From IMG/VR virus record IMGVR_UViG_2585427755_000009: a stretch of DNA of 27,338 nt. One strand, given 5' to 3'. Below are positions 1 to 27,338 of the stretch, piece by piece; positions within the stretch are counted from its first letter, which is position 1; each line of letters starts with the position of its first letter. The DNA comes from a virus. Lineage: Duplodnaviria; Heunggongvirae; Uroviricota; Caudoviricetes. The notes under the pieces were generated by a model that worked only from the letters and a program-made list of their open reading frames with translations, did not search any database and was not told the origin of the DNA. The position numbers and the translations under genes were made by a program.

Positions 1-1053
1 TTACGGGGTAATGCCAACCGCTGCCGCCACTTTGTCGCCACTTGGCAGCGTTGCCAGAGGATTGAAACGGAGCGCCGTTTCCAGATGATCCGGTGCCAGA
101 TGTGCGTAACGCATAGTCATTTTTATATCGTGGTGTCCGAGAATTTTTTGTAAGGCCAGAATGTTTCCACCCGACATCATGAAGTGCGCCGCAAACGTAT
201 GGCGCAGAACGTGTGTGAGTTGACCGCGAGGGAGCACGATAGACGTTTTTTCCATCACGGATAAAAATTGAAAATAGCAGTCTGTGAAGAAATTGAACCC
301 ATCAAGCGCCATGATCTCTTCGTAAAGCTCTTTACTGATAGGGATGCTTCTGTTTTTCTTCCCCTTCGTTCTGACAAAGGTAATTCGGTATTTGGTCACC
401 TGTGAGCGGGTAAGATTTACGGCTTCACGCCAGCGTGCGCCTGTGCTTAAGCATATCTTAACTACCAGTGCCAGAATTGGGTCCTGACGTTTGCAATCAG
501 CCAGCAATTCAACAATCTGCTCATGGGTAAGCCATGCCATCTCTTTTTCTGCGATGGTGAATTTTCGCATGTTCTCCAGTGGGTTCGGATACGACCATTC
601 GCCCAGACGGGATAGTTCGCTAAAAACACTACTTAGATAGCTTTGCTCCAGGTTAATGGTGACCGGGCTTGCTCCTTTCTTCCATTTCTCGCTGAAGTAG
701 ATCTCGCCTGTCAGGCGTTTATCTCGATAGTGGGCAAACATTTTAGAGGTGAGATCGGTTGCAAGAGGATTGCCCAGAGCGTCAACCATCAACAGCAATT
801 TGTCATAGACATGCTGCCCAGCTGTCAGAGATTTACCATGTAGTTTGAACCATAGCTCAACCACGTCTTTCAGTGTTCGACGATCCACTGATTCACCCAG
901 CCAGGGCTTTGCTTCGGTTTCTTCCATCGTGTGGCGCTCAAAAGCCAGTGCTTCGCCTTTGGTGACGAATTGTTTACGCACACGACGCCCACTTCGTCCG
1001 GCGGGGTAACATTCGCAAAGCCATTTCCCAGTGGTGAGTTTTCGTACTGCCAT
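1..1053 (-). CDS. int: Tyrosine site-specific integrase (P2/186 Int family)
   Basis: ORF terminates at TAA (rc of window pos 1-3). C-terminal catalytic region typical of tyrosine recombinases (LTHVLRHTFAAHF...HHDIKMTMRYAHL). Start placed at ATG 1051-1053, preceded by GGAGGG with 7-nt spacer; N-terminus MAVRKL... resembles my recollection of 186 Int. The longer in-frame ORF to 1209 has no RBS. Confidence 0.9.
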   Translation of the reverse strand: MAVRKLTTGKWLCECYPAGRSGRRVRKQFVTKGEALAFERHTMEETEAKPWLGESVDRRTLKDVVELWFKLHGKSLTAGQHVYDKLLLMVDALGNPLATDLTSKMFAHYRDKRLTGEIYFSEKWKKGASPVTINLEQSYLSSVFSELSRLGEWSYPNPLENMRKFTIAEKEMAWLTHEQIVELLADCKRQDPILALVVKICLSTGARWREAVNLTRSQVTKYRITFVRTKGKKNRSIPISKELYEEIMALDGFNFFTDCYFQFLSVMEKTSIVLPRGQLTHVLRHTFAAHFMMSGGNILALQKILGHHDIKMTMRYAHLAPDHLETALRFNPLATLPSGDKVAAAVGITP

Positions 1054-1241
1054 AAAAAATGCCCTCCAGTAGAGAGCATTTTCACTGTATGTATAACCAG
1101 TGTCAATGTATGAAATCCTACGACCATACATCTCACTGAAGCCATAATTAAGTTGGCTATTCTTTTTGCTATGTGAGCATGTAACTTTTGCGGTTAACCT
1201 GCGGCTCATTTTTATTTTAGACGCAGATATAAAAGCAAAAG

Positions 1242-1433
1242 TTATCGTGAGTTTTTAGTACAGATTTTTTTGGATTTACTAATAGTTCCATCATTGCAAA
1301 CGAATTTGCCATCTGAGGTACAGTGAGAAACACCTCCCTTTTTCCCTGAGCAGGGATAATTTCTAGCATAGGTAGTTAGTGGGTTTAATAACAAAGAACA
1401 TGACAAAACCACAAAAAATACCTTACCAAGCAT
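1242..1433 (-). CDS. Small secreted Cys-rich protein (predicted signal peptide, about 40-aa mature peptide); hypothetical moron
   Basis: 63-aa ORF in an AT-rich segment between int and cI. Hydrophobic N-terminus [23 protein letters not shown] then a probable signal-peptidase site; mature part has 5 Cys and many Lys/Gly. No family recognised. Confidence 0.45.
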
Positions 1434-2431: not shown

Positions 2432-2941
2432 ATGTTTGATTACCAAGTTTCCAAACATCCACATTTTGATGAAGCCTGTCGTGCATTCGCACTGCGCCAC
2501 AATCTGGTGCAACTGGCAGAACGTGCGGGCATGAATGTGCAGATTCTGCGGAACAAGCTGAACCCAGCTCAACCTCATTTATTAACCGCACCAGAAATCT
2601 GGCTGCTTACCGATCTGACTGAAGATTCAACGTTGGTAGATGGTTTTCTGGCACAGATTCATTGTCTGCCATGTGTACCGATTAATGAGGTAGCAAAAGA
2701 GAAACTGCCGCATTACGTCATGAGCGCAACTGCAGAGATCGGGCGTGTTGCAGCAGGTGCGGTATCTGGTGATGTAAAAACTAGTGCCGGTCGTCGTGAT
2801 GCTATCAGCAGCATTAACTCTGTAACACGACTGATGGCGCTGGCTGCTGTTTCATTGCAGGCCCGTTTACAGGCTAATCCTGCGATGGCGAGTGCAGTTG
2901 ATACCGTGACTGGCCTCGGTGCTTCATTCGGTTTGCTGTGA
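2432..2941 (+). CDS. cII: CII-like lysogeny-establishment transcriptional activator (186 CII family)
   Basis: Start at ATG 2432 with GGAG 9 nt upstream gives 169 aa, the length of 186 CII. Lies immediately downstream of apl as in 186. Confidence 0.75.
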
Positions 2942-2948
2942 GGTGCTT

Positions 2949-3245
2949 ATGCTGACGAAAGAACCATCATTTGCATCGCTGCTGGTAAAACAAAGCCCGG
3001 CAATGCACTACGGTCACGGCTGGATCACGGGTGAGGATGGAAAACGCTGGCATCCATGTCATTCACAAGATGAATTGCTGTCTGAATTGACCACGAGGAA
3101 ACGGAGAAAGTCCAAATGTATGCGGCAGAAAGTGAAGTGGTTTATCAGTTTCGTTACAGAGGGGAGAGTTATTCAGTACCTGAAGATGATTTGCTCTGTT
3201 GCTATCCGTCATTGTCGGGCGATGGCAGTTACTTTTTCACGTTAA
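2949..3245 (+). CDS. Hypothetical early protein (3' extent uncertain)
   Basis: ATG 2949 with GAGGTG RBS overlapping the cII stop. The N-terminal 55 aa look protein-like; the 3' third overlaps the next ORF in another frame and looks low-complexity. Confidence 0.35.
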   Translation: MLTKEPSFASLLVKQSPAMHYGHGWITGEDGKRWHPCHSQDELLSELTTRKRRKSKCMRQKVKWFISFVTEGRVIQYLKMICSVAIRHCRAMAVTFSR

Positions 3246-4232: not shown

Positions 4233-5086
4233 GCACCATCCTGAAATGGGCGGGAAATAAAACCGCCATTATGTCCGAACTGAAAAAGCATCTTCCTGCT
4301 GGCCCGCGACTGGTTGAACCTTTCGCGGGTTCCTGTGCAGTGATGATGGAGACGGAGTACCCCAGCTATCTTGTTGCGGATATTAATCCTGATTTAATCA
4401 ACCTCTATAAAAAGGTTGCTGCTGATTGTGAATCGTTTATATCTCGCGCCAGAGTTTTATTTGAGATCGCAAACAGGGGGGTGGCTTATTACAACATAAG
4501 GCAGGAGTTTAATTACTCAACTGAAATTACTGATTTCATGAAAGCGGTATATTTCCTGTATCTCAATCGTCACGGTTACCGTGGTTTATGTCGCTATAAC
4601 AAGAGCGGGCATTTCAACATTCCCTACGGTAATTATAAAAATCCGTATTTCCCTGAAAAAGAAATTCGCGCATTTGCAGAAAAAGCCCAGCGAGCAACGT
4701 TTATCTGCGCCAGCTTTGATGAAACGCTGGCGATGTTGAAGGCGGGGGATGTGGTGTATTGCGATCCGCCGTATGACGGTACGTTTTCCGGCTATCACAC
4801 TGATGGTTTCACTGAAGATGACCAGTATCACCTGGCATCCGTTCTTGAACATCGGTCATCAGAAGGACATCCGGTCATTGTTTCTAACAGTGATACATCC
4901 CTGATCCGTTCGCTGTATCGCAATTTTACTCACCACTATATCAAGGTAAAACGCAGCATCGGTGTGGCAGCTGGCGAGGGTAAATCAGCAACAGAAATCA
5001 TTGCTGTTTCCGGGCCGCGCTGCTGGGTGGGATTTGATTATTCGCGTGGCGTGGATAGTTCTGCCGTGTACGGAGTACGTGCATGA
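4229..5086 (+). CDS. dam: DNA adenine-N6 methyltransferase (Dam family, GATC-type)
   Basis: Catalytic DPPY motif ([10 protein letters not shown]) and N-terminal AdoMet-binding region (LKWAGNK...EPFAGSCAV). Start ATG 4229 overlaps the previous stop (ATGA). Confidence 0.85.
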
Positions 5087-7497
5087 GCCATGCCGATATG
5101 AACAACTGCTGCGGCTTTAACGAGGCTGCCGCAGCGTTCTCATGGAACAGCCCGAAAAAGGCCATTAACCCTTATCTGGACCCGGCGGAAGTTGCGCCGG
5201 TTTCTGCGCTTTCAAACCTGATCGCTCTGTACGCTGCCGATAACGAACAGGAACACCTGCGCCGCGAGGCACTGAGTGATCAGGTCTGGGAGCGTTATTT
5301 CTTTAATGAATCCCGTGATCCTGTCCAGCGCGAAATGGAGCAGGATAAGCTCATTAGTCGGGCAAAGCTGGCGCATGAGCAGCAGCGTTTTAATCCAGAT
5401 ATGGTCATTCTGGCGGACGTCAATGCCCAGCCTTCCCATATCAGCAAGCCGCTGATGCAACGTATTGAATACTTCAGCAGCCTGGGCAGGCCAAAGGCTT
5501 ATTCCCGCTATTTGCGTGAGACGATTAAGCCATGTTTGGAGCGACTGGAGCATGTACGCGACAGCCAGCTATCTGCATCTTTTCGTTTTATGGCAAGCCA
5601 TGTAGGGCTGGACGGCCTGCTGATTCTGCCTGAAATGAGTCAGGATCAGGTGAAACGCCTGTCTACTCTTGTCGCTGCGCATATGAGCATGTGTCTTGAT
5701 GCCGCTTGTGGTGATTTGTACGCCACCGATGATGTTAAGCCAGAAGAAATCCGCAAGACATGGGAAAAGGTGGCAGCAGAAACCCTGCGACTGGATGTTA
5801 TCCCGCCTGCGTTTGAGCAACTTCGTCGGAAAAGAAACCGCCGTAAACCCGTGCCCTATGAACTCATTCCGGGTTCGCTGGCGCGTATGTTGTGCGCCGA
5901 TTGGTGGTACCGGAAATTATGGAAGATGCGTTGCGAATGGCGGGAAGAGCAGTTGCGTGCTGTTTGCCTGGTCAGCAAAAAAGCATCTCCCTATGTCAGC
6001 TATGAAGCCGTGATGCATAAACGTGAGCAGCGCCGTAAGTCGCTGGAGTTTTTCCGTTCTCATGAACTGGTGAACGAAGACGGCGACACGCTGGACATGG
6101 AGGATGTGGTAAACGCCAGCAGCAGCAACCCGGCGCATCGCCGCAATGAGATGATGGCCTGTGTTAAAGGTCTGGAGCTTATCGTAGAAATGCGCAGTGA
6201 CTGTGCCGTTTTCTACACTATCACCTGTCCGTCGCGTTTCCATTCCACGCTCAATAACGGCAGACCAAACCCGACCTGGACAAACGCGACGGTAAGACAA
6301 AGCAGCGATTATCTGGTCGGCATGTTTGCTGCATTTCGTAAGGCTATGCACAAAGCCGGGTTGCGCTGGTATGGCGTGCGGGTGGCTGAACCGCATCATG
6401 ACGGCACAGTTCACTGGCACCTGTTGTGTTTCATGCGCAAAAAAGACCGCCGCGCCATTACTGCATTGTTGCGTAAGTTTGCCATCCGTGAAGACCGCGA
6501 GGAGCTGGGCAATAACACGGGGCCACGCTTTAAGTCTGAGCTGATAAACCCGCGCAAAGGTACGCCAACAAGCTACATCGCGAAATACATCAGTAAGAAC
6601 ATTGACGGGCGTGGTCTGGCTGGCGAGATCAGCAAGGAAACGGGTAAATCCCTGCGTGATAACGCTGAATACGTTAATGCCTGGGCGTCTCTGCATCGTG
6701 TTCAGCAATTCCGCTTCTTTGGTATTCCGGGGCGTCAGGCTTACCGTGAACTTCGCTTGCTGGCTGGTCAGGCGGCAAGGCAACAGGGTGACAAAAAAGC
6801 AGGTGCGCCGGTACTGGATAACCCGCGTCTTGATGCCATTCTGGCTGCTGCTGATGCTGGTTGTTTTGCCACCTACATCGTGAAGCAGGGCGGCGTACTG
6901 GTTCCCCGTAAATATCACCTCATCAGAACCGCTTATGAAATCAACGAAGAGCCGACCGCCTATGGCGATCACGGCATTCGTATTTATGGCATCTGGTCAC
7001 CCATTGCAGAGGGCAAGATCTGCACTCATGCAGTGAAGTGGAAAATGGTTCGTAAAGCCGTTGACGTTCAGGAGGCGGCAGCCGACCAGGGCGCTTGCGC
7101 CCCTTGGACTCGTGGCAATAACTGTCCCCTTGCTGAAAATTTGAACCAACAGGAGAAAGATAAATCAGCTGATGGGGACACCAGAACGGATATTACCCGC
7201 ATGGATGACAAGGAGTTGCACGATTACCTGCACAGTATGAACAAAAAAGAGCGCCGGGAACTGGCTGCAAGGTTACGTCTGGTGAAACCGAAACGGCGTA
7301 GAGACTACAAACAGCGAATTACAGACCATCAACGACAGCAGCTCGTCTATGAACTGAAGTCCAGAGGATTTGATGGCAGCGAGAAAGAGGTCGATTTACT
7401 CCTTCGCGGCGGCAGTATTCCATCAGGAGCAGGCTTGCGTATCTTCTATCGGAACCAGCGTCTGAAGGAAGATGATAAGTGGCGGAACCTGTATTAA
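5083..7497 (+). CDS. repA: Replication initiation endonuclease (P2 gpA / 186 RepA rolling-circle family)
   Basis: 804-aa protein after dam (ATGA overlap); contains the HUH-type motif [11 protein letters not shown] and the downstream YIAKYISK tyrosine region typical of P2 A protein. Confidence 0.9.
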
Positions 7498-7649: not shown

Positions 7650-7838
7650 ATGCAGGACTATTTTTTGGAGTCTTTGAAGCTCCAGCGCATTGATTTTTTT
7701 CTTAAGCTTGTAGCGGCTAGTGAGTGTAGTGATGAAGAGAAGGGGCTGGCTCTGCAGTGGGTTTCTGAATTAACTGATGAACTCATGGCAAAAATCAGAA
7801 CCCACGAATACAACCGCTCAATGGATGTCATCAGTTGA
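7650..7838 (+). CDS. Small SOS-induced protein, candidate Tum-like antirepressor
   Basis: 62-aa ORF with strong RBS (AGGAGG) immediately downstream of the LexA box. Position matches 186 tum; the sequence itself was not recognised. Confidence 0.5.
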   Translation: MQDYFLESLKLQRIDFFLKLVAASECSDEEKGLALQWVSELTDELMAKIRTHEYNRSMDVIS

Positions 7839-7849
7839 GGTGACTTTTT

Positions 7850-8083
7850 ATGCGCATTGAAATAATGATCGATAAAGAGCAGAAGATTAGCCAGTCTACC
7901 CTGGACGCCCTTGAATACGAGCTTTACCGCAATCTGCGCCCCCTGTATCCAAAAACGGTAATTCGCATCCGCAAAGGTAGCTCTAACGGTGTGGAACTGA
8001 CCGGACTGCAACTGGACGAAGAAAGGAAGCAAGTGATGAAAATTATGCAGAAAGTGTGGGAAGACGACAGCTGGCTGCATTAA
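7850..8083 (+). CDS. DinI-family protein
   Basis: MRIEIMIDKE...DALEYELYRNL...KIMQKVWEDDSWLH aligns by eye with E. coli DinI (MRIEVTIAKT...DALAGELSRRI...EILQETWESADDWF). RBS GAGGTGA; second gene of the LexA-box operon. Confidence 0.8.
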   Translation: MRIEIMIDKEQKISQSTLDALEYELYRNLRPLYPKTVIRIRKGSSNGVELTGLQLDEERKQVMKIMQKVWEDDSWLH

Positions 8084-8268
8084 GAAACGTTGCCCCTAGG
8101 AGGATTCATTCTAATGGGGGCTAGTTTGGGCAACGAGTGAAATAAGGCGTAAGGTGGGCGGTCATTTTTATAAGTGATCGTCCGCTTTGTGCCAGAAGCG
8201 AACGTTTCTTCTGCTATCTTTCGTCAATTAGCGAATGGCAGACTAATTTGCAACGGATAATCTGAATT

Positions 8269-8295
8269 TTGTTAGATTATGGGTATTCCTATAAT
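8269..8295 (+). promoter_or_regulatory. Putative sigma70 promoter for the KAP NTPase cargo gene
   Basis: TTGTTA (8269-8274), 15-bp spacer, consensus TATAAT (8290-8295), in the AT-rich leader upstream of the KAP gene. Confidence 0.3.
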
Positions 8296-8404
8296 ATTTA
8301 CCAATAATAACCTTACAATGTACACTACCGATTGAGTTTTCCATAGTTGGCCTTTGGCTCTACTTACCATCTATGTTTATGTATTTTATCAAAATGGACT
8401 AAAA

Positions 8405-10297
8405 ATGCACAATACGTACATCAAAGACTATCTAGAATATTACCTTAGCCTTAAAACTGAACCTCAATACGCCATTATGCTTAAAGGTGCTTGGGGATCA
8501 GGTAAAACTTGGTTCATTGAACGAGTTCTTGAAGAATATAGGCAGAAACATTCAGAGTTCAAATTTCTAAAAGTGAGCTTGTATGGCGTCAACTCTATTG
8601 AGCAGATTGAAGATGAGTTCTATCGTCAACTGCATCCTGTCCTATCAAACAAAGCCCTTATCTTTGGTGCAAATGTACTAAAAAATACGCTTAAGGCTAC
8701 TTTCAAGATCGATCTTAATGGCGATAATAAATCTGACGTAGATGTCAATAGCAATGTTCCCACCATTAATCTTAGCGACTTTACTAGAAAACCAGATGGT
8801 TTTGTGCTGGTCTTTGATGATGTCGAGAGAGCTGGTGTAGATTTACCAATCTTATTTGGATATATAAATCACTTTGTGGAGGTAAACGGATACAAAGCGA
8901 TCTTGGTTGCCAATGAAGATGAAATAATCAATAGAGAAAAGCGAATAAATAATGATGATGAGAAATCTCGCAATGAATACATGAGAACAAAAGAAAAGCT
9001 AGTAGGTAAAACATTTGAAGTAACGTCAGATTTACATAGTGCTTGTAAGATTTTTTTGAACGTAATTAGTAGTTTGCATGTTGCTAATATATTTAAAGAA
9101 GATATGCAGACAATAGAGGACCTCTATGTGTCAGCGAATTATAATAATCTAAGACACTTGAGGCAGTTCTTTCTCGATGTACAACGAATTATTTCCCTTT
9201 TGGGAGATAAATATGTAAGTAACGATGAATTTATAAGGGTGTTTTTTCATCAATTGTTAATTTTTTCGATGGAGTACCGGGGAGGGAATCTTAGTTACGA
9301 GGATTTCAATTCAATCGGCAATGTTAATTATGGTATGTTTTTGGGTAAAGAACGTGTCAAAAGTAAGTATGACATGATTGTCGAGAAATATTCGTCTCCT
9401 GTATTAACCGAGAAGTTACTGGATGGTGCGTCTTGGAGAGAACTAATCTGTGATGGAAAGGTAACGGGTGATCTTCTTGCTCAGTTGGATATTACGCGAT
9501 TTTTTAGAAGCAGCGATTCCCAAGCATGGGAGTATTTGTGGAACTATAGAGAACTAAATGAAACTATGCTTTATGAGCAGTACGCTATTGCTAAGGATAA
9601 CCTGTTTTCAGGTAAGATCACTTCCTTAGGTGAACTTCTGATGACAGCGAGTATTTTGCTGGAAATGGCGAAAGAAGGTCTAACAACAGATGATGTTCAT
9701 GATCTCATAAATGAGACAAAACAGAATATAAATAATTATTATAATAGACTTAGAGCTGAAGATGTACATAAGGAATATGCGCAAACACATTATAACGAAT
9801 TAAGGGCATGGCGTGGTTTAGGTTTTCTTGACAGGGATAGTGATGACTTTAAGCTCATTATTGAACATATTAAAATAGAAAGGAAGAAACGGTTTGATGA
9901 TTCAATTTCGGAATTTGCATTGCAGTTCAGAGATGAGTTACAAAGGGGAAAATTATCGTTGTTATCTGAATTGAGTCATTCTAATAATAGACAGTTAAAT
10001 CTTCATGATGTACCTTTTTTACACTTAGTTCCTGCTGATGTTTTCATTGAAAGCTATAGGAAACTTGATCCAGTTATCATGAGGAAACTGGCATTTAGCT
10101 TACGGAGTCGTTATTCTGATGCGGATGCCAGAACTAGACTGATTGAAGAATATAACTGGTTGATCAACCTAAAAGATATAGCTGTAGATTTCATTAAAAA
10201 CTCAGAAAATAGCGTTTTTCAGGTCTTTCACGTAAAATTTTTCATTGACTATGTACTAACTGACGCAATCAAATTCTTTAGTGATGGGACAAATTAA
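8405..10297 (+). CDS. KAP-family P-loop NTPase
   Basis: Walker A GAWGSGKT close to the N-terminus and a Walker B-like hhhhDDVER (VLVFDDVER), the arrangement of KAP NTPases. About 630 aa, AT-rich relative to core phage genes. ATG 8405; the track start at 8354 is TTG. Confidence 0.8.
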   Translation: MHNTYIKDYLEYYLSLKTEPQYAIMLKGAWGSGKTWFIERVLEEYRQKHSEFKFLKVSLYGVNSIEQIEDEFYRQLHPVLSNKALIFGANVLKNTLKATFKIDLNGDNKSDVDVNSNVPTINLSDFTRKPDGFVLVFDDVERAGVDLPILFGYINHFVEVNGYKAILVANEDEIINREKRINNDDEKSRNEYMRTKEKLVGKTFEVTSDLHSACKIFLNVISSLHVANIFKEDMQTIEDLYVSANYNNLRHLRQFFLDVQRIISLLGDKYVSNDEFIRVFFHQLLIFSMEYRGGNLSYEDFNSIGNVNYGMFLGKERVKSKYDMIVEKYSSPVLTEKLLDGASWRELICDGKVTGDLLAQLDITRFFRSSDSQAWEYLWNYRELNETMLYEQYAIAKDNLFSGKITSLGELLMTASILLEMAKEGLTTDDVHDLINETKQNINNYYNRLRAEDVHKEYAQTHYNELRAWRGLGFLDRDSDDFKLIIEHIKIERKKRFDDSISEFALQFRDELQRGKLSLLSELSHSNNRQLNLHDVPFLHLVPADVFIESYRKLDPVIMRKLAFSLRSRYSDADARTRLIEEYNWLINLKDIAVDFIKNSENSVFQVFHVKFFIDYVLTDAIKFFSDGTN

Positions 10298-10583
10298 TAT
10301 TTTGTTGATTAACATAGGGATATATTATGAGAAGTACTAGGGATGGTCAGCAACATTATTAATGTCCGCTTCGCTCAAAGCAGGCTTTGTGCTTTGTAAG
10401 TACGTATGTTTCGTTTATCAAGCGATCATTCGGTTACTGGATTTCAGTTCCCCCGTAAGTGCATGACTATGCCGCATGAGATCGCATGATCGTTTGCGGA
10501 TCGTTTTTGCTAAGGCCCGCCAGAACTGGTGGGATTTTGCGTAGATCATGCACCTGCATGAAAACCGCTACATAAAGCGGGCA

Positions 10584-10602
10584 GGCGTGGCGGGGATACG
10601 AT
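10584..10602. other. Putative cos (cohesive-end) core of a P2/186-type phage
   Basis: GGCGTGGCGGGGATACGAT matches about 14/19 (P2) and 16/19 (186) of the cos sequences as I recall them. It lies in a 360-bp GC-richer non-coding island between two AT-rich cargo genes, where P2-family cos is expected (between the A side and Q). The comparison is from memory. Confidence 0.3.
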
Positions 10603-10659
10603 TGCGCGCGCAAGCTAAAGTGGCAATAATGAGCATGTAAGGTAAAATTCAAGGAGATT

Positions 10660-11814
10660 ATGATGTATATCTGCGAAAGTCACATTGTTGAATCAAATAT
10701 AAAAAAACTAATTTTTTCGCAAAATATACGAGGTATTTGTGCTTTTTGTTGTGCAGATACTGTTTGTTTAGATACTGATTCTTCAGAAGTACGTAATTTG
10801 TTGAAAGCTATTCTGAGATATCATTATGATGAAGTCGATTACAATACTCATTTTGGAGGGGAGTATTACCCGAGTTTTCTATTGGAAGATGATTTTATTT
10901 TCACCAAGGATATACAGGAGCATGATGAATCTTTTGGGGAACTCGATAGCGAATTGTGGGATATGGCATTTGATAGTGAGGGAATAAATATTTATGCAGG
11001 CTATGGATCTGATGGTCTATATAATACGCCATATATGTCTATCAGAAATGCACATCAGCCATTTTTAGATTCTCTGTCAAAACAGCTTTCAGAAAAGAAT
11101 TACCATGATTTTGAAGGTGAGCTAAGAAGTATTATAAAAGGTTATGGTGATATTTTTTCGAAGATAATAGAAGGAAGTTCTGTGGTATATAGAGCCAGAG
11201 TTGGGACTGCTGGCTATAAAACAGCACTTAGGGGATTTAGCCGTGAAGGAAAGAAAATATTTGTTCCATTTAAAGATAAGGAAATAGGAGCCGTGCCACC
11301 ACTAAAGGCTACTGCTGGCAGGGCTAATAGAGCAGGCGTTTCTTACCTTTATTGTGCTACAGATAGTTATACTGCAATTGCGGAAGTTCGACCTCATCCA
11401 ACAGATGTTGTTTCAATTGGTAAATTTAGAGTTGCAAAAGCATTAAAGGTATTCGATTTTTCTTATCCTAATTTTTTAGAGTTTATTGAGAGTGATGAAA
11501 GTTTATTATCCATGATACCATATGCAAAGATGGCAGGTATTTTTAATACTGCAACTCCACCTTCCTTAGAAGGAAGATATAGTGTGTCCCAACTAATATC
11601 TGATTGTATAAGGAAAGAGGGGTATGATGGTATACAATTTTCAAGTACAGTTGGTAAAGGTAAGAACTTGGTTGTTTTTAATCCTTCATGTATGGAATTT
11701 ATAGATGGTTCATCAAAAGTAATAGAAATTGACAAGGTTCAGTATATTTACGAGGAAAAGCAGGTTGTTGGTATGAATGATCAATGGGAGATTTATTACG
11801 ATGAAGTTGAATAA
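10660..11814 (+). CDS. RES-domain protein with a Cys-rich N-terminal extension (putative NAD+-targeting toxin/Abi effector)
   Basis: C-terminal half carries the three RES landmarks: GRANRAG (Arg), YLYCATDSYTAIAEVRPH (Glu) and DGIQFSSTVGKGKNLVVF (Ser). N-terminal 200 aa has CxxH...CxFCCxxxxC. AGGAG RBS; AT-rich. Confidence 0.8.
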   Translation: MMYICESHIVESNIKKLIFSQNIRGICAFCCADTVCLDTDSSEVRNLLKAILRYHYDEVDYNTHFGGEYYPSFLLEDDFIFTKDIQEHDESFGELDSELWDMAFDSEGINIYAGYGSDGLYNTPYMSIRNAHQPFLDSLSKQLSEKNYHDFEGELRSIIKGYGDIFSKIIEGSSVVYRARVGTAGYKTALRGFSREGKKIFVPFKDKEIGAVPPLKATAGRANRAGVSYLYCATDSYTAIAEVRPHPTDVVSIGKFRVAKALKVFDFSYPNFLEFIESDESLLSMIPYAKMAGIFNTATPPSLEGRYSVSQLISDCIRKEGYDGIQFSSTVGKGKNLVVFNPSCMEFIDGSSKVIEIDKVQYIYEEKQVVGMNDQWEIYYDEVE

Positions 11815-11866: not shown

Positions 11867-12898
11867 TTAATCAAAGCAATATGAATTGAATGTAATTAAA
11901 TCTTCACCTAGCCAATCATTGACCTCCTCCATCCTTTTTTGTAAAGGTAGCAACTCGTTTCGAACAAACACATTAGCAGCCTTCTCCACATCCCCAAATC
12001 CCCCGACATTATTTGGCATTATCCCCATCATCTGTGGCGGCACGCGGTGTGCTGCCATCATGTCATCGCGACTAACATTTTTGATATTCAGAAATTCATC
12101 CTTCGCCGCGACTTCTGACAACGGGATAATCTGAAGTCCGTCCTTTTTGCCGTTCGGCGAGTACATAAACAGGTTGCGGAAGTTGCCCGGACCTTTGGCG
12201 CTTTTCATCGCATTACGGAGGTTGTTCACATCTTCCTGGTTCTGCGCGGCATCGGTCATGTACATGATGAAGCCTGCATGACTACCGTTAATGTAATACT
12301 TCCGGCGGAACAGCGTGGCGGACTCGTTGAGCAGGGCTGACGGAATGGCAGAAAGATAACCGGGCAGGCCGTAGATCTCCTGGTTGATATCCGGTTCCAT
12401 CAGGTGAAAAATGCTGCCTTTCGTGAACTGATACGGCTGTGTAGTCATGCCGTATTGCACAAACCAGTAGGTATCCAGGTCTAACCCGCGTCGGGTGTAT
12501 TTTGCCAGAGCAGGCTCAAGGGCGATAACTTCACCGAAGCGGTTCGTGCGTTTCTCCAGGTAGGCGTTACCAAATACCAGATAGTCCTGCACAAAACGTG
12601 AAAAAGCCTGCTGGCTGAGCAGCGGGTGAGGGATGTAGGTACTGGTCAGAATGTTGCATTTCACCGCAATTGGTGAGCTGTGATGCACGGCGGCGCGGAA
12701 GGTTCGTGCCAGTCCGTCAAAGCTGACGGGCGGCTCATACCAGCGATCCATCTGTACGCATTCCACATAGTCCAGCAGTTCACGGCGGTCCAGAACAGGA
12801 ACGGGATCGCCAAAGCTGAATGCTTCGGCTGAAGTTTGGCTTTTATGCTTGAGCTGATTCGTCGCCGCAGCGCGGTTTTTCTTACTCTTTCCCATCAA
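11867..12898 (-). CDS. Q: Portal protein (P2 gpQ family)
   Basis: 343 aa, transcribed leftward together with the terminase; size and position are those of P2 Q. Confidence 0.9.
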   Translation of the reverse strand: MMGKSKKNRAAATNQLKHKSQTSAEAFSFGDPVPVLDRRELLDYVECVQMDRWYEPPVSFDGLARTFRAAVHHSSPIAVKCNILTSTYIPHPLLSQQAFSRFVQDYLVFGNAYLEKRTNRFGEVIALEPALAKYTRRGLDLDTYWFVQYGMTTQPYQFTKGSIFHLMEPDINQEIYGLPGYLSAIPSALLNESATLFRRKYYINGSHAGFIMYMTDAAQNQEDVNNLRNAMKSAKGPGNFRNLFMYSPNGKKDGLQIIPLSEVAAKDEFLNIKNVSRDDMMAAHRVPPQMMGIMPNNVGGFGDVEKAANVFVRNELLPLQKRMEEVNDWLGEDLITFNSYCFD

Positions 12899-22865: not shown

Positions 22866-23463
22866 TCTGCTGCCACCGGGTTCAACACCACTGGAGCGCC
22901 GACTGGCGCAAACCTGCAGCGGGATTTCTGATCTGCAGGTGCCGCTTCGTGACTTGTGGAATCCGGCAACCTGTCCGGTCAGTTTCCTGCCTTATCTCGC
23001 CTGGGCGTTCTCTGTGGATCGCTGGGACGAGGGCTGGACAGAAAGCGTCAAGCGCCAGGTGGTGAAGGATGCTTTTTATATTCATCAGCATAAAGGGACC
23101 ACCAGTGCCGTGCGGCGGGTGGTGGAGCCGTTCGGCTTTCTGATCCGCATTATTGAGTGGTGGCAGACCGGAGAGGCACCGGGCACGTTTCGCCTGGATA
23201 TCGGCGTGCAGGACCATGGCATCACTGAAGATACCTATCTGGAACTTGAGCGACTGATAAGCGATGCCAAACCATGTAGCCGCCACATGATCGGCATGTC
23301 CATCAATCTGCAGACCAGCGGCCCGCATTGGGTGAGAGCCGCCAGCTATCTTGGCGAAGAAATCACGATCTATCCGTATATCAACGAAACAATTATTTCT
23401 GGCGGCACCGCGCATGAAGGCGGAGCGGTCCATGTTATTGACACAATGAGAGTGAATCCATGA
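22858..23463 (+). CDS. I: Baseplate/tail protein I (P2 gpI family)
   Basis: 201 aa between J and the tail-fibre gene. Confidence 0.85.
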
Positions 23464-24860
23464 GCACAAAATTTTATACCCTGCTGACGGATATTGGCGC
23501 GGCGAAACTTGCCAGCGCCGCCGCGCTCGGTGTGCCTTTAAAAATTACCCATATGGCGGTCGGCGATGGCGGCGGAACATTGCCAACGCCGGACGCAAAG
23601 CAGACAGCACTGGTAAATGAGAAACGCCGGGCTGCGCTGAATATGCTCTATATCGACCCGCAGAACAGCAGCCAGATTATTGCTGAACAGGTGATCCCTG
23701 AAAATGAGGGCGGTTGGTGGATACGTGAAGTGGGCCTGTTTGATGAATCCGGGGCATTGATTGCCGTGGGCAACTGCCCGGAAAGCTATAAGCCGCAACT
23801 GGCTGAAGGCAGCGGGCGCACCCAGACCGTGCGCATGGTGCTGATTACCAGCAGTACGGACAATATCACCCTGAAAATCGACCCTGCTGTAGTACTGGCA
23901 ACCCGCAAGTATGTGGATGATAAGACACTGGAGCTGAAGGTGTATGTGGATGACCAAATGGCAAAACACCTTGCCGCAGCGGACCCACATTCACAGTATG
24001 CACCCAAAGAAAGTCCAACGTTTACCGGAACCCCCAAAGCGCCAACGCCAGCGGCGGGGAATAATACCACGCAGGTTGCGACCACTGCATTTGTTCAGGC
24101 GGCACTGACGGCTCTTATTAATGGTGCGCCAGCCACGCTGGACACGCTGAAAGAAATAGCCGTAGCCATTAACAATGATCCGAAATTCAGTACCACCATT
24201 AACAATGCGTTGGCACTGAAAGCGCCGCTGTCGAGTCCGGCACTTACCGGAACGCCAACAGCTCCCACGGCGGCGCAGTCGGTCAACAATACACAGATTG
24301 CCACTACCGCTTTTGTGAAATCGGCAATTGCAGCAATGGTGGGTTCTGCACCTGCGGCACTGGATACGCTGAACGAACTGGCAGCGGCGCTGGGGAATGA
24401 TCCGAACTTTGCCACGACAATGCTTAATGCGCTGTCAGGTAAACAACCGCTGGACAATACGCTTACCAATTTGAGTGGAAAGGATGTAGCTGGTCTTCTC
24501 ACATACCTTGGTTTGGGAGAAGCGGCTAAAAGGAATGTAGGGACAGGGGCGAATCAGATACCTGATATGGGTAGCTTCACGCTTTCTGTTTCAGGTACTG
24601 GATATCAAAAATTACCATCAGGTTTTATTCTTCAGTGGGGCTCAATCGGCGCACCAGGCATTGCACAGGATGTAGTAACCCATTTCCCGATTGCATTTCC
24701 AAACAGATGTCTGCGTGTTTTGGTCTCACAAGACTACACACCAGATAGCGGGGCTGTTGGTTATATTGCCTGTGCAGGTTTTAGTCCCGACCCGGTTAAA
24801 TTTATATCCAGAGCCAGTACTCCTGGCCTCGGCGCTTCATTTTTAGCGTTAGGCTGTTAA
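23460..24860 (+). CDS. H: Tail fibre protein (P2 gpH-like), current C-terminal variant
   Basis: 466 aa; conserved N-terminal region followed by a distinct C-terminal domain after the hix-like site at 24496-24521. Confidence 0.85.
23514..24522. repeat. Left arm of a perfect inverted repeat of at least 1,009 bp (tail-fibre constant region)
   Basis: Reverse complement of 26330-27338; proteins in all reading frames across the two arms are identical in the ORF track. The repeat reaches the window edge, so the outer limit is unknown. Confidence 0.85.
24496..24521. promoter_or_regulatory. Hin/Gin/Cin-type inversion crossover site (hix/gix-like), left copy
   Basis: TTCTCACATACCTTGGTTTGGGAGAA; its reverse complement TTCTCCCAAACCAAGGTATGTGAGAA matches hixL as I recall it (TTCTTGAAAACCAAGGTTTTTGATAA) at the core AAACCAAGGT and the TTCT/GAA ends. 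It sits exactly where tail-fibre identity ends. Confidence 0.5.
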
Positions 24861-24881
24861 TTTAGCTATATGGAGTGAAAA

Positions 24882-25322
24882 ATGAATTACATATATTCCG
24901 CGACTACAAACTCTTTCTATCCGCTGGAGATGAAAGAGGATTACACTCAAGCTGACTCATGGCCAGATGATGCTGTTGAAGTTGATGAGCAAGTGTATAT
25001 TGAGTTTTCCGGATTACCGCCGAAAGGAAAAATCCGTATCGCTGGAGAAAATGGTTTTCCTGCATGGTCTGAAATTCCACCACCAACACATGAGGAACAA
25101 ATTGCTGCAGCCGAATTGGAGAAGCAGCAATTGATTAATCAGGCCAACGATTATATGAACAGTAAACAATGGCCTGGTAAAGCGGCTATTGGTCGTCTGA
25201 AAGGTGAGGAACTGGCGCAATATAATTTGTGGCTGGATTATCTGGACGCACTGGAACTGGTTGATACCTCCAGTGCTCCAGATATTGAATGGCCTACGCC
25301 TCCGGCAGTTCAGGCCAGATGA
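24882..25322 (+). CDS. G: Tail fibre assembly chaperone (P2 gpG / Mu U family)
   Basis: 146 aa immediately after H; conserved C-terminal DxxxxWP motif region (APDIEWPTPP). Confidence 0.8.
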   Translation: MNYIYSATTNSFYPLEMKEDYTQADSWPDDAVEVDEQVYIEFSGLPPKGKIRIAGENGFPAWSEIPPPTHEEQIAAAELEKQQLINQANDYMNSKQWPGKAAIGRLKGEELAQYNLWLDYLDALELVDTSSAPDIEWPTPPAVQAR

Positions 25323-25887
25323 CATCCGGCGCGGTGCTGGTATCTGTTGCCGTCACCGCGTCAATGTAATCCAGCACAGCGTTAAGTCTGGTTGTTTCTG
25401 CCTGCGTCAGTTTACGTTCGGCCTGTAATTTCAGCTGAATCAGACTAATGGAAGCCATTGCTGCATCAATCAGTGACTGGCGCTGTGCTTCTGCCGCTTC
25501 TACTGCGGCACCGTGTTGTGCCTCAGTATCTGTCACCCATTTCTTACCATCCCATTTATCATATGGCGTTAACGGTGAAAGCGTGACATAACCGTTTTTG
25601 ATGGCACCGATATAATCCACTGTAACAGCAGCACCATTTTCGATTGAGTAAACAGTCTCATTGCGATGGTCTTCTTCATGGCTCCATCCCTTACCTGTAA
25701 ATACTGCCACTCTTCCCGGAATGTTTTCGCCAGGGTCAATTCCAGTGGAACAGGCGGGCATACTTACGCCAGTATTAATATATTCATCAGACCAGCCCGT
25801 ATACTCAGATGTTTCAGCATCATAATAAAAACAACGCATATCGCCCGGCACTGTAGCCAGCCCATTTTTATCAAAAACAGGTTTCAT
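25294..25887 (-). CDS. Alternative tail fibre assembly chaperone (G'), convergent with G
   Basis: 197 aa on the minus strand after H'; C-terminus APDVIWPELP parallels the G C-terminus; the 3' ends of G and G' overlap by 29 bp. Confidence 0.75.
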   Translation of the reverse strand: MKPVFDKNGLATVPGDMRCFYYDAETSEYTGWSDEYINTGVSMPACSTGIDPGENIPGRVAVFTGKGWSHEEDHRNETVYSIENGAAVTVDYIGAIKNGYVTLSPLTPYDKWDGKKWVTDTEAQHGAAVEAAEAQRQSLIDAAMASISLIQLKLQAERKLTQAETTRLNAVLDYIDAVTATDTSTAPDVIWPELPEA

Positions 25888-27338
25888 TATTTAGCCCTCA
25901 CCAGAAAGTTAAATGCGATGTTACGTGGTCTGACGGCTATAAAATTCACACCATCACCCACTGAATTACTGGTGTAATGGTATCGAGAGAAACCCGGCTC
26001 GTGTGCTGATATTCCATCGTGATTAGCAATCGAATGGCCGGACCCCTCTGGATAATTACCTCCAAATTGCGATAAAGATGTTGCTGCCTGCCAGCTTAAT
26101 AATGCTCGTCCACTGTCCGCCCCTCGCCCGTCATCCCAGATACGAATGAAATCACCGCGGGCTTCAGGTAATACCAGCGAAGGAAACACTTTCGCCAGCA
26201 CAGGGTAATCAGTGGCAGAGAATTTCGCGCCGTTGAACTTCAAAAACACCATGCCGGACCAGCTTTCGATTACGGTATCTGGCATTGCAGCGGACGGCCA
26301 GAAGAACGGAACACCAATAGCTGGAGCACCTTCTCCCAAACCAAGGTATGTGAGAAGACCAGCTACATCCTTTCCACTCAAATTGGTAAGCGTATTGTCC
26401 AGCGGTTGTTTACCTGACAGCGCATTAAGCATTGTCGTGGCAAAGTTCGGATCATTCCCCAGCGCCGCTGCCAGTTCGTTCAGCGTATCCAGTGCCGCAG
26501 GTGCAGAACCCACCATTGCTGCAATTGCCGATTTCACAAAAGCGGTAGTGGCAATCTGTGTATTGTTGACCGACTGCGCCGCCGTGGGAGCTGTTGGCGT
26601 TCCGGTAAGTGCCGGACTCGACAGCGGCGCTTTCAGTGCCAACGCATTGTTAATGGTGGTACTGAATTTCGGATCATTGTTAATGGCTACGGCTATTTCT
26701 TTCAGCGTGTCCAGCGTGGCTGGCGCACCATTAATAAGAGCCGTCAGTGCCGCCTGAACAAATGCAGTGGTCGCAACCTGCGTGGTATTATTCCCCGCCG
26801 CTGGCGTTGGCGCTTTGGGGGTTCCGGTAAACGTTGGACTTTCTTTGGGTGCATACTGTGAATGTGGGTCCGCTGCGGCAAGGTGTTTTGCCATTTGGTC
26901 ATCCACATACACCTTCAGCTCCAGTGTCTTATCATCCACATACTTGCGGGTTGCCAGTACTACAGCAGGGTCGATTTTCAGGGTGATATTGTCCGTACTG
27001 CTGGTAATCAGCACCATGCGCACGGTCTGGGTGCGCCCGCTGCCTTCAGCCAGTTGCGGCTTATAGCTTTCCGGGCAGTTGCCCACGGCAATCAATGCCC
27101 CGGATTCATCAAACAGGCCCACTTCACGTATCCACCAACCGCCCTCATTTTCAGGGATCACCTGTTCAGCAATAATCTGGCTGCTGTTCTGCGGGTCGAT
27201 ATAGAGCATATTCAGCGCAGCCCGGCGTTTCTCATTTACCAGTGCTGTCTGCTTTGCGTCCGGCGTTGGCAATGTTCCGCCGCCATCGCCGACCGCCATA
27301 TGGGTAATTTTTAAAGGCACACCGAGCGCGGCGGCGCT
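25887..27338 (-). CDS. Alternative tail fibre protein H' (partial; 5' end runs off the window)
   Basis: N-terminal about 320 aa identical to H, different C-terminal receptor-binding region (GAPAIGVPFFWPSAAMPD...). The reading frame stays open to the window edge. Confidence 0.75.
   Translation of the reverse strand, partial: SAAALGVPLKITHMAVGDGGGTLPTPDAKQTALVNEKRRAALNMLYIDPQNSSQIIAEQVIPENEGGWWIREVGLFDESGALIAVGNCPESYKPQLAEGSGRTQTVRMVLITSSTDNITLKIDPAVVLATRKYVDDKTLELKVYVDDQMAKHLAAADPHSQYAPKESPTFTGTPKAPTPAAGNNTTQVATTAFVQAALTALINGAPATLDTLKEIAVAINNDPKFSTTINNALALKAPLSSPALTGTPTAPTAAQSVNNTQIATTAFVKSAIAAMVGSAPAALDTLNELAAALGNDPNFATTMLNALSGKQPLDNTLTNLSGKDVAGLLTYLGLGEGAPAIGVPFFWPSAAMPDTVIESWSGMVFLKFNGAKFSATDYPVLAKVFPSLVLPEARGDFIRIWDDGRGADSGRALLSWQAATSLSQFGGNYPEGSGHSIANHDGISAHEPGFSRYHYTSNSVGDGVNFIAVRPRNIAFNFLVRAK
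26330..27338. repeat. Right arm of the perfect inverted repeat of at least 1,009 bp (truncated by the window end)
   Basis: Reverse complement of 23514-24522. Confidence 0.85.
26331..26356. promoter_or_regulatory. Hin/Gin/Cin-type inversion crossover site (hix/gix-like), right copy
   Basis: TTCTCCCAAACCAAGGTATGTGAGAA, inverted copy of the site at 24496-24521, at the inner edge of the right repeat arm. Confidence 0.5.

Follow-up and report, generated by a model that had tools for sequence, protein, structure and literature searches.

The window analysed here is a stretch of 27,338 nt, given as one strand, from a virus of the class Caudoviricetes (IMG/VR record IMGVR_UViG_2585427755_000009). 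Its first genes form the lysogeny module of a prophage of the 186 type (P2 family), in which a short ORF lies between the genes for the cI repressor and the integrase (Table 1). On the plus strand beyond cI are an Apl/Cox-like gene, CII, Fil, DUF5347, a Dam-type methylase, gpA, and the late genes. The RefSeq start was used for cI (the mechanical ORF reaches 2105). The integrase gene, int, was likewise taken as 350 aa from the RefSeq ATG of identical DNA (1053-1051), the mechanical 402-aa ORF (1-1209, minus strand) being over-extended.

An earlier note on this DNA, made from its letters alone, had singled out the short ORF as an AT-rich reading frame of 63 aa between integrase and repressor. 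This description was borne out: the ORF is in the list of open reading frames with an ATG start, int and cI flank it, and its GC content is 0.354 vs 0.495 for the window. The product is identical to WP_000900883.1, and RefSeq has a CDS at the matching place. Recent RefSeq annotations already name this CDS "YdcA family protein"; we refer to the gene as ydcA-like.

Table 1. Positions of the lysogeny-module features and of other genes in the window.
Feature	Position	Strand	Basis and remarks
P2/186-type tyrosine integrase (int)	1-1053	minus	Int_N 3.3e-32, Phage_integrase 1.4e-21 (Pfam); downstream end of the lysogeny module
Spacer, ydcA-like stop to int start	1054-1241	none	188 bp, AT-rich, GC 0.365
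ydcA-like CDS	1242-1433	minus	63 codons; ATG start, TAA stop at 1242-1244
Mature YdcA domain (predicted), 40 aa	1245-1364	minus	Family consensus, AF2 model, similarity to Dis2 lobes
Predicted signal peptide, codons 1-23	1365-1433	minus	Hydropathy, family alignment, AF2 helix at residues 3-15
Shine-Dalgarno GGGAGG	1439-1444	minus	Read from sequence; 5 nt upstream of the ydcA-like ATG, within the 15-nt gap
186-type cI repressor	1449-2018	minus	Phage_CI_repr 3.3e-31, Phage_CI_C 4.7e-29 (Pfam); RefSeq annotation of identical DNA
Apl/Cox-like gene	2164-2367	plus
CII	2423-2941	plus
gpA	5083-7497
140-aa ORF	7658-8080	minus	Between gpA and portal gene
KAP P-loop NTPase	8354-10297	plus	PADLOC candidate PDC-S49, 3e-156
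RES-domain protein	10660-11814	plus
Portal gene	11867-12898
DUF6216 ORF, 231 aa	20240-20935	minus	Antisense within late block
First tail fibre	23460-24860	plus
First tail-fibre assembly gene	24882-25322	plus
Second tail-fibre assembly gene	25294-25887	minus
Second tail fibre	25887-27320	minus

The ATG of the ydcA-like gene lies 15 nt past the stop codon of cI (TAG, 1449-1451). The ribosome-binding site is kept as GGGAGG in five E. coli variants and reads TGGAGG in the sixth (L014). A scan for promoters and terminators detected no promoter-like or terminator-like site on the minus strand between cI and the ydcA-like ORF; as nothing of this kind splits the two, they are probably co-transcribed from the lysogenic promoter pL. 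Three plus-strand sites (1453-1481, 1188-1204, and 1343-1356) were dismissed because promoter counts equalled the shuffle expectation and the strand was wrong. A promoter-like site, TTGACA-17-GAAAAT, was seen on the minus strand at 1106-1078, just upstream of the RefSeq start of int. No Rfam family reached its gathering score anywhere in the window, and thus the region is explained by no known RNA. An overlapping 50-aa ORF (1217-1369, minus strand) was rejected as spurious; its frame is the one chosen by PGAP in a frameshift allele described below.

Elsewhere in the window, three accessory genes lie between gpA and the portal gene, where they occupy (7658-11814) a known P2 defence hotspot. The first of them, the 140-aa ORF, had no Pfam or PADLOC match, and the other two encode a KAP P-loop NTPase and a RES-domain protein. 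The DUF6216 ORF runs antisense within the late lysis/tail/baseplate block as a moron-like insertion. At the far end of the window, two pairs, each of a tail-fibre gene and an assembly gene, face each other (23460-27320) in an arrangement reminiscent of a host-range cassette, either invertible or alternative; in the second tail fibre, the N-terminal domain lacks its first 25 profile positions.

Conservation and gene order of the ydcA-like gene

The length of the ORF is by itself weak evidence for a gene: an ORF with an ATG start and 63 aa or more arose in 138 of 2000 shuffles of positions 1053-1448 (about 7%). The pattern of substitutions is far more informative. Between E. coli prophage copies differing by 5-10% in DNA, pN/pS was 0.03-0.13, and even lower in the mature part of the protein; these diverged pairs had 7-14.5 synonymous vs 1-4.5 non-synonymous differences. 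Together with the homology described below, selection is decisive, and the ydcA-like ORF is a real gene under purifying selection.

DNA of the ydcA-like gene was found in 628 of 5426 complete E. coli genomes (about one in nine), derivatives of BL21(DE3) included, and the exact protein is present on at least 1000 contigs, Salmonella and Klebsiella among them. Many related prophages were without the gene, phage 186 and all enterobacterial records of the phage collection among them, and a megablast search with positions 1000-2200 against phage records gave a match limited to the 5' end of int. A frameshift allele was also detected, in which one T is lost from a T6 run in codons 6-7 (E. coli DETEC-P829, L012, 730-935; about 1412-1417 in the window). 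PGAP calls in its place an out-of-frame ORF of 50 aa (WP_250221206.1), which is on six contigs. Since many related prophages do without the gene and a frameshifted copy circulates, the gene is dispensable.

The order int, ydcA-like ORF, cI is colinear in about 590 E. coli genomes. About 530 further E. coli genomes share int and some 60-80 bp upstream of it, and then continue into a different immunity region without a ydcA-like gene. The breakpoint of homology is sharp and falls at 1111-1131 in the window (int-only matches end at positions 312-332 of the query 800-2105). Between int and cI, these prophages of other immunity lack ydcA and encode either a KAP P-loop NTPase (E2348/69) or a DUF4041 protein (MB7671).

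Where the ydcA-like gene is present in 186-like and HP2 prophages, it always stands directly after cI, either 15-50 nt downstream or, in HP2, overlapping the cI stop, and extra cargo lies between it and int. Loci with such cargo were TUM13773, CE10, L015-L019, and L026. For TUM13773, further Escherichia contigs, and Klebsiella, the cargo is a KAP NTPase; for CE10 it is an ISL3 element plus ClbS, and for Hafnia a 347-aa unknown protein. Nothing extra separates the ydcA-like gene from int in the Yersinia prophage or in the window. The YdcA proteins encoded next to cI in Escherichia, Klebsiella, Yersinia, and Hafnia are 61-70% identical to the window protein, a divergence which indicates that the linkage is old. 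The recurrence of the order cI, ydcA-like gene, variable cargo, int likewise indicates that the peptide travels with cI and that the cargo slot is downstream of the peptide. The earlier note had taken the interval between int and cI as a place for lysogenic-conversion cargo. For the interval this view stands, as sibling prophages carry the KAP NTPase, DUF4041, ClbS/ISL3 or 347-aa genes there; for the peptide it does not, because the peptide is linked to cI and is not the variable cargo.

The YdcA family and the encoded peptide

By profile matching, the window protein is placed in the already catalogued YdcA family, and its exact sequence is in RefSeq. It matched NCBIfam model NF007463 (PRK10040.1-2) with 115.8 bits vs a cutoff of 93 (E 5.3e-34) and PHROG 6000 (phrog_6000) from end to end (1.9e-34). 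Precomputed matches to the Pfam family PF27300 "YdcA" exist for the representative of its cluster, P0001 (98% identical to the window protein), and for 56 other homologues; a Pfam-A release older than PF27300 yielded only a sub-threshold chance match (GULLO2-like, 13 bits). An exhaustive profile search recovered 462 clusters at 50% identity (E ≤ 1e-3). Alignment of 223 domains gave the family signature PCSGKKGG[VI]SHC-x(2,3)-GKF[VI]CNDG[ST]xSxSK[KR]xC, located right after the leader, and the window protein has all of the motif positions (C28, C38, C46, C58, K32, F44, G49, S52, S54, and K55).

Most of the family is chromosomal or plasmid-borne across the Proteobacteria, with homologues outside phages in alpha-, beta-, and gammaproteobacteria. 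Contexts included chromosomal housekeeping genes (Moraxella) and plasmids of Acinetobacter (one of them a 3.9-kb MOBQ plasmid), Rhizobium, and Citrobacter; phages of Moraxella, Acinetobacter, and Pseudomonas also carry homologues. A P2-type cI or int adjoins a YdcA-family gene in only seven of 80 species-representative loci, so any function is not phage-specific. The earlier note had pointed to small prophage-encoded peptides as the place to look for relatives; a family was indeed matched (NF007463, PHROG 6000), but it is only partly prophage-borne. The UniRef name for the exact protein is "Conjugal transfer protein", and no conjugation gene adjoins any prophage copy examined. A distant Acinetobacter homologue (L007) adjoins traD and mobA on the 3.9-kb plasmid.

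Another member of the family is E. coli K-12 YdcA (b1419; NF007462/PRK10040; PF27300), which is 57% identical to the window protein over the mature part. The two proteins share their architecture, a leader followed by a domain of about 37-40 aa with four cysteines. They differ in setting, the K-12 gene being chromosomal, between rydC and hokB, and the window gene prophage-borne and linked to cI. They also differ in model: against NF007462, the sister model for K-12 YdcA, the window protein scored 68.5 bits vs a cutoff of 118. In the literature on E. coli ydcA, the function is given as unknown. Most publications that mention "ydcA" concern unrelated namesakes (a B. subtilis rhomboid, ORFs of the gonococcal genetic island, and a plasmid methylase) and were set aside. 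In E. coli W, deletion of ydcA resulted in poor growth with 300 mM 3-hydroxypropionate (PMC7642389), and earlier work cited there found ydcA to be induced at pH 5 under the control of YdcI.

The precursor begins with what is predicted to be a classical signal peptide, as the earlier note had proposed; hydropathy and the family alignment agree on this. The leader has K4, a hydrophobic core from V5 to L16 (maximum of the Kyte-Doolittle 11-mer, 2.77), a proline at -6, and T21-Y22-A23 before R24. Across the family, the hydrophobic leader is variable and ends in a conserved A-x-A, with Ala at -1 in 86% of members and Ala, Ser, Thr or Val at -3. These columns suggest that the Sec pathway and signal peptidase I would produce a cut between A23 and R24. 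The mature peptide predicted in this way has 40 aa (4.3 kDa, pI 9.7, net charge +6.8) with seven lysines, two arginines, and five glycines, in line with the Lys/Gly-rich peptide of about 40 residues that had been expected. The count of five cysteines in that peptide needed correction. Only four (C28, C38, C46, and C58) are in the mature part, each of them kept by 92-97% of the domains in the family; C12, the fifth, sits in the leader, in a column that is Cys in just 13% of the 223 domains. Two disulfides are predicted for the mature peptide. The AlphaFold model, with pLDDT of 82-90 over residues 31-60, consists of the leader helix and a short beta-hairpin.

Likeness to Legionella Dis2 and a possible role in the lysogen

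[quoted passage not shown] Aligning the family by hhalign to a Dis2-like protein without a leader gave an E-value of 1.7e-5 and a probability of 78.6% (52% identity over 21 columns), and thus the similarity to Dis2 does not come from the leader; this Dis2-like protein also carries a precomputed PF27300 match. Chains of Dis2 were the top two matches of a Foldseek search of the PDB, although the structural match was weak, and Foldseek against viral structures returned only noise (best E 0.29). A search with a Dis2 fragment retrieved only two truncated Dis2-like proteins, too few for a Dis2 profile. Judged by sequence E-values near 1e-5 and by a fold match that is itself weak, the YdcA domain appears to correspond to each lobe of Dis2, and this homology is apparently new: Dis2 has been described as having no obvious homologues outside the Legionellales (PMC12716638).

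The domain also occurs in larger proteins. It follows directly after the leader and is joined by a linker to a staphylococcal-nuclease, Endonuclease_NS or type VI secretion system (T6SS) VasL domain (P0116, P0173, and P0091, respectively), and tandem forms with two and three repeats exist (P0065-P0068). One YdcA copy adjoins T6SS genes on a Citrobacter plasmid. Our literature searches turned up no publication on these fusions and repeats. The likeness to Dis2 and the fusions to periplasmic enzymes point to a general periplasmic docking module; the nuclease fusions and the charge would make DNA an alternative ligand. In Legionella, deletion of dis2 had only subtle effects (PMC12716638), and so the docking role itself is unproven.

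Our proposal, to which we give a probability of roughly one half, is that the ydcA-like gene encodes a YdcA-domain protein that is expressed in the lysogen, exported by Sec, disulfide-bonded in the periplasm, and active on the envelope. The gene would be the second of the repressor (pL) operon, transcribed when polymerase reads through from cI, and it would have a strong ribosome-binding site of its own for translation. Sec would export the precursor, from which signal peptidase I would cut the leader after Ala23, and the strongly cationic product of 40 residues would be oxidised in the periplasm to form two disulfides. The oxidised knot would have a small fold like that of each Legionella Dis2 lobe, and this fold may dock on an anionic or outer-membrane-proximal component of the envelope, thereby altering some property of the lysogen's envelope. 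In this scheme, we infer that the gene is co-transcribed with cI, where its leader is cut, that the product forms disulfides and resides in the periplasm, and what its docking role and phenotype would be.

For the phenotype, our best guess, a tentative one, is interference with the entry of foreign DNA or phage, that is, superinfection exclusion; an exclusion factor was also among the possibilities raised by the earlier note. Small periplasmic or envelope proteins of phages that bear signal peptides and exclude superinfecting phages, acting in the envelope of an infected cell or a lysogen, are T4 Spackle, T5 Llp, and Cor of phi80 and N15; the analogy to them is functional only, and we found no relation in sequence or fold between them and the window protein. 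In a more specific version, which we regard as speculative and rather unlikely, the peptide would be a periplasmic gatekeeper: a free single lobe of the Dis2 type, made continuously in lysogens, that excludes superinfecting phages or conjugative DNA by binding incoming nucleic acid or an outer-membrane-proximal site of envelope-crossing machines (phage tail tips, T4SS or T6SS). The hints behind this version are the fusions to periplasmic nucleases, the strong positive charge, the place of the domain in a T4SS, and co-expression with the repressor.

Stress tolerance, as for chromosomal ydcA, ranks slightly below exclusion as a phenotype and is nearly as likely. The corresponding alternative to our proposal is that the gene is a host-fitness moron, the phage copy acting like chromosomal ydcA by helping the envelope against acid or organic-acid stress, to the benefit of the lysogen and without blocking phages. 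We consider this possible, though doubtful. It fits the identity to K-12 YdcA across the mature domain, the 3-hydroxypropionate growth defect of the E. coli W deletion, the induction at pH 5 under YdcI, and the fact that most family members are chromosomal or plasmid-borne, outside P2-type prophages. However, the 3-hydroxypropionate phenotype comes from one report, which gives no mechanism, and was gone in a yieP deletion background (PMC7642389), the phage copy falls in the other NCBIfam equivalog (NF007463, not NF007462), and most E. coli already have a chromosomal ydcA, to which a second copy would add little unless dosage or timing matters.

The earlier note had raised the possibility of a toxin-like peptide or effector, and the mature peptide is indeed small, cationic (+7), and predicted to be disulfide-rich, at a prophage locus that carries accessory genes. 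An exported toxin, bacteriocin, defensin-like antimicrobial peptide or effector on other cells nevertheless seems improbable to us. No gene for immunity, maturation or export adjoins the ydcA-like gene here (the neighbours are cI and int) or in the other contexts examined, a Sec leader delivers to the periplasm only, and the YdcA domain serves elsewhere as a stoichiometric structural subunit of a T4SS and as the N-terminal module of larger periplasmic proteins. The mature sequence is also near-invariant across genera, unlike those of arms-race toxin families, and no defence-protein model of PADLOC-DB v2 matched the ORF at E ≤ 0.01.

More improbable still is a lipoprotein anchored through Cys12. 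The V-L-S-C at residues 9-12 resembles a lipobox, and one homologue (P0047) is labelled "Lipoprotein" by a source, but this candidate is badly placed, with its cysteine only 11 residues from the N-terminus, and unconserved, and nearly all members have, 11 residues further on, the conserved AxA that suits signal peptidase I. Lastly, a chance ORF in an AT-rich spacer, or a spacer that only sets int expression, is effectively refuted, despite the shuffled ORFs of equal length and the frameshift allele, by the low pN/pS, the strong and conserved ribosome-binding site, the family HMM E-values of about 1e-34, and the homologues of three proteobacterial classes outside any phage.

The ydcA-like DNA is found mostly in a 186-like prophage right after the repressor gene, and the product is probably made continuously in the lysogen. 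The position of the peptide in the cI module, with a swappable slot downstream, refines the map of accessory loci in the P2 family. The YdcA family is spread across the Proteobacteria on chromosomes, plasmids, and phages, and the gene offers an inexpensive, clearly delimited way to assign a function to it. Should a phenotype emerge, be it in exclusion, in envelope stress or in the modulation of a secretion machine, a widespread family of orphan small proteins would gain a function.

Compared with known systems, the window protein differs from Dis2 in several respects. [quoted passage not shown] Both lobes carry the motif GG[VI]....G..VCNDG..S, which the window protein has in common with them. 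However, the 124 aa of Dis2 form two lobes, which hold the five disulfides and additional cysteines, whereas the window protein consists of one lobe and has four cysteines in its mature part. Dis2 is a stoichiometric component of its T4SS, present in 13 copies, whereas the window protein adjoins no secretion-system gene; the genes flanking the ydcA-like ORF and every larger annotated ORF of the window are phage or cargo genes, none of them T4SS.

A parallel in gene order is Haemophilus phage HP2/S2 (L002, NC_003315), a distant relation within the P2 family, in which an unannotated YdcA-family gene of 60 aa (2920-3102) comes after cI, as in the window, its ATG overlapping the cI stop. The HP2 homologue is 73.5% identical to the window protein over the mature part and scores 79.2 with NF007463, below the cutoff of 93. 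The record of HP2 annotates pL as the lysogeny promoter. In addition, HP2 has a presumably secreted protein of 254 aa, orf1, encoded between the YdcA-family gene and int, and this protein also begins with a signal-peptide-like sequence. Taking the two leaders together, the lysogeny operon of HP2 would encode two exported proteins before int.

Hotspots of accessory genes in P2-like prophages have been described (PMC9122126; PMC13586616), the second of these papers covering 8165 P2-like prophages. The int-primase interval accounts for about 8% of P2 defence systems. Like the accessory and defence cargo of P2-like phages (old, tin, and fun(Z)), the ydcA-like gene is non-essential, carried by P2-family prophages, and presumably expressed in the lysogen. 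Unlike that cargo, its product is predicted to be exported and not cytoplasmic, and the gene is kept with cI and not swapped. The fixed position as second gene of the cI operon in prophages of the 186/HP2 type, with a variable cargo slot downstream, appears to be new.
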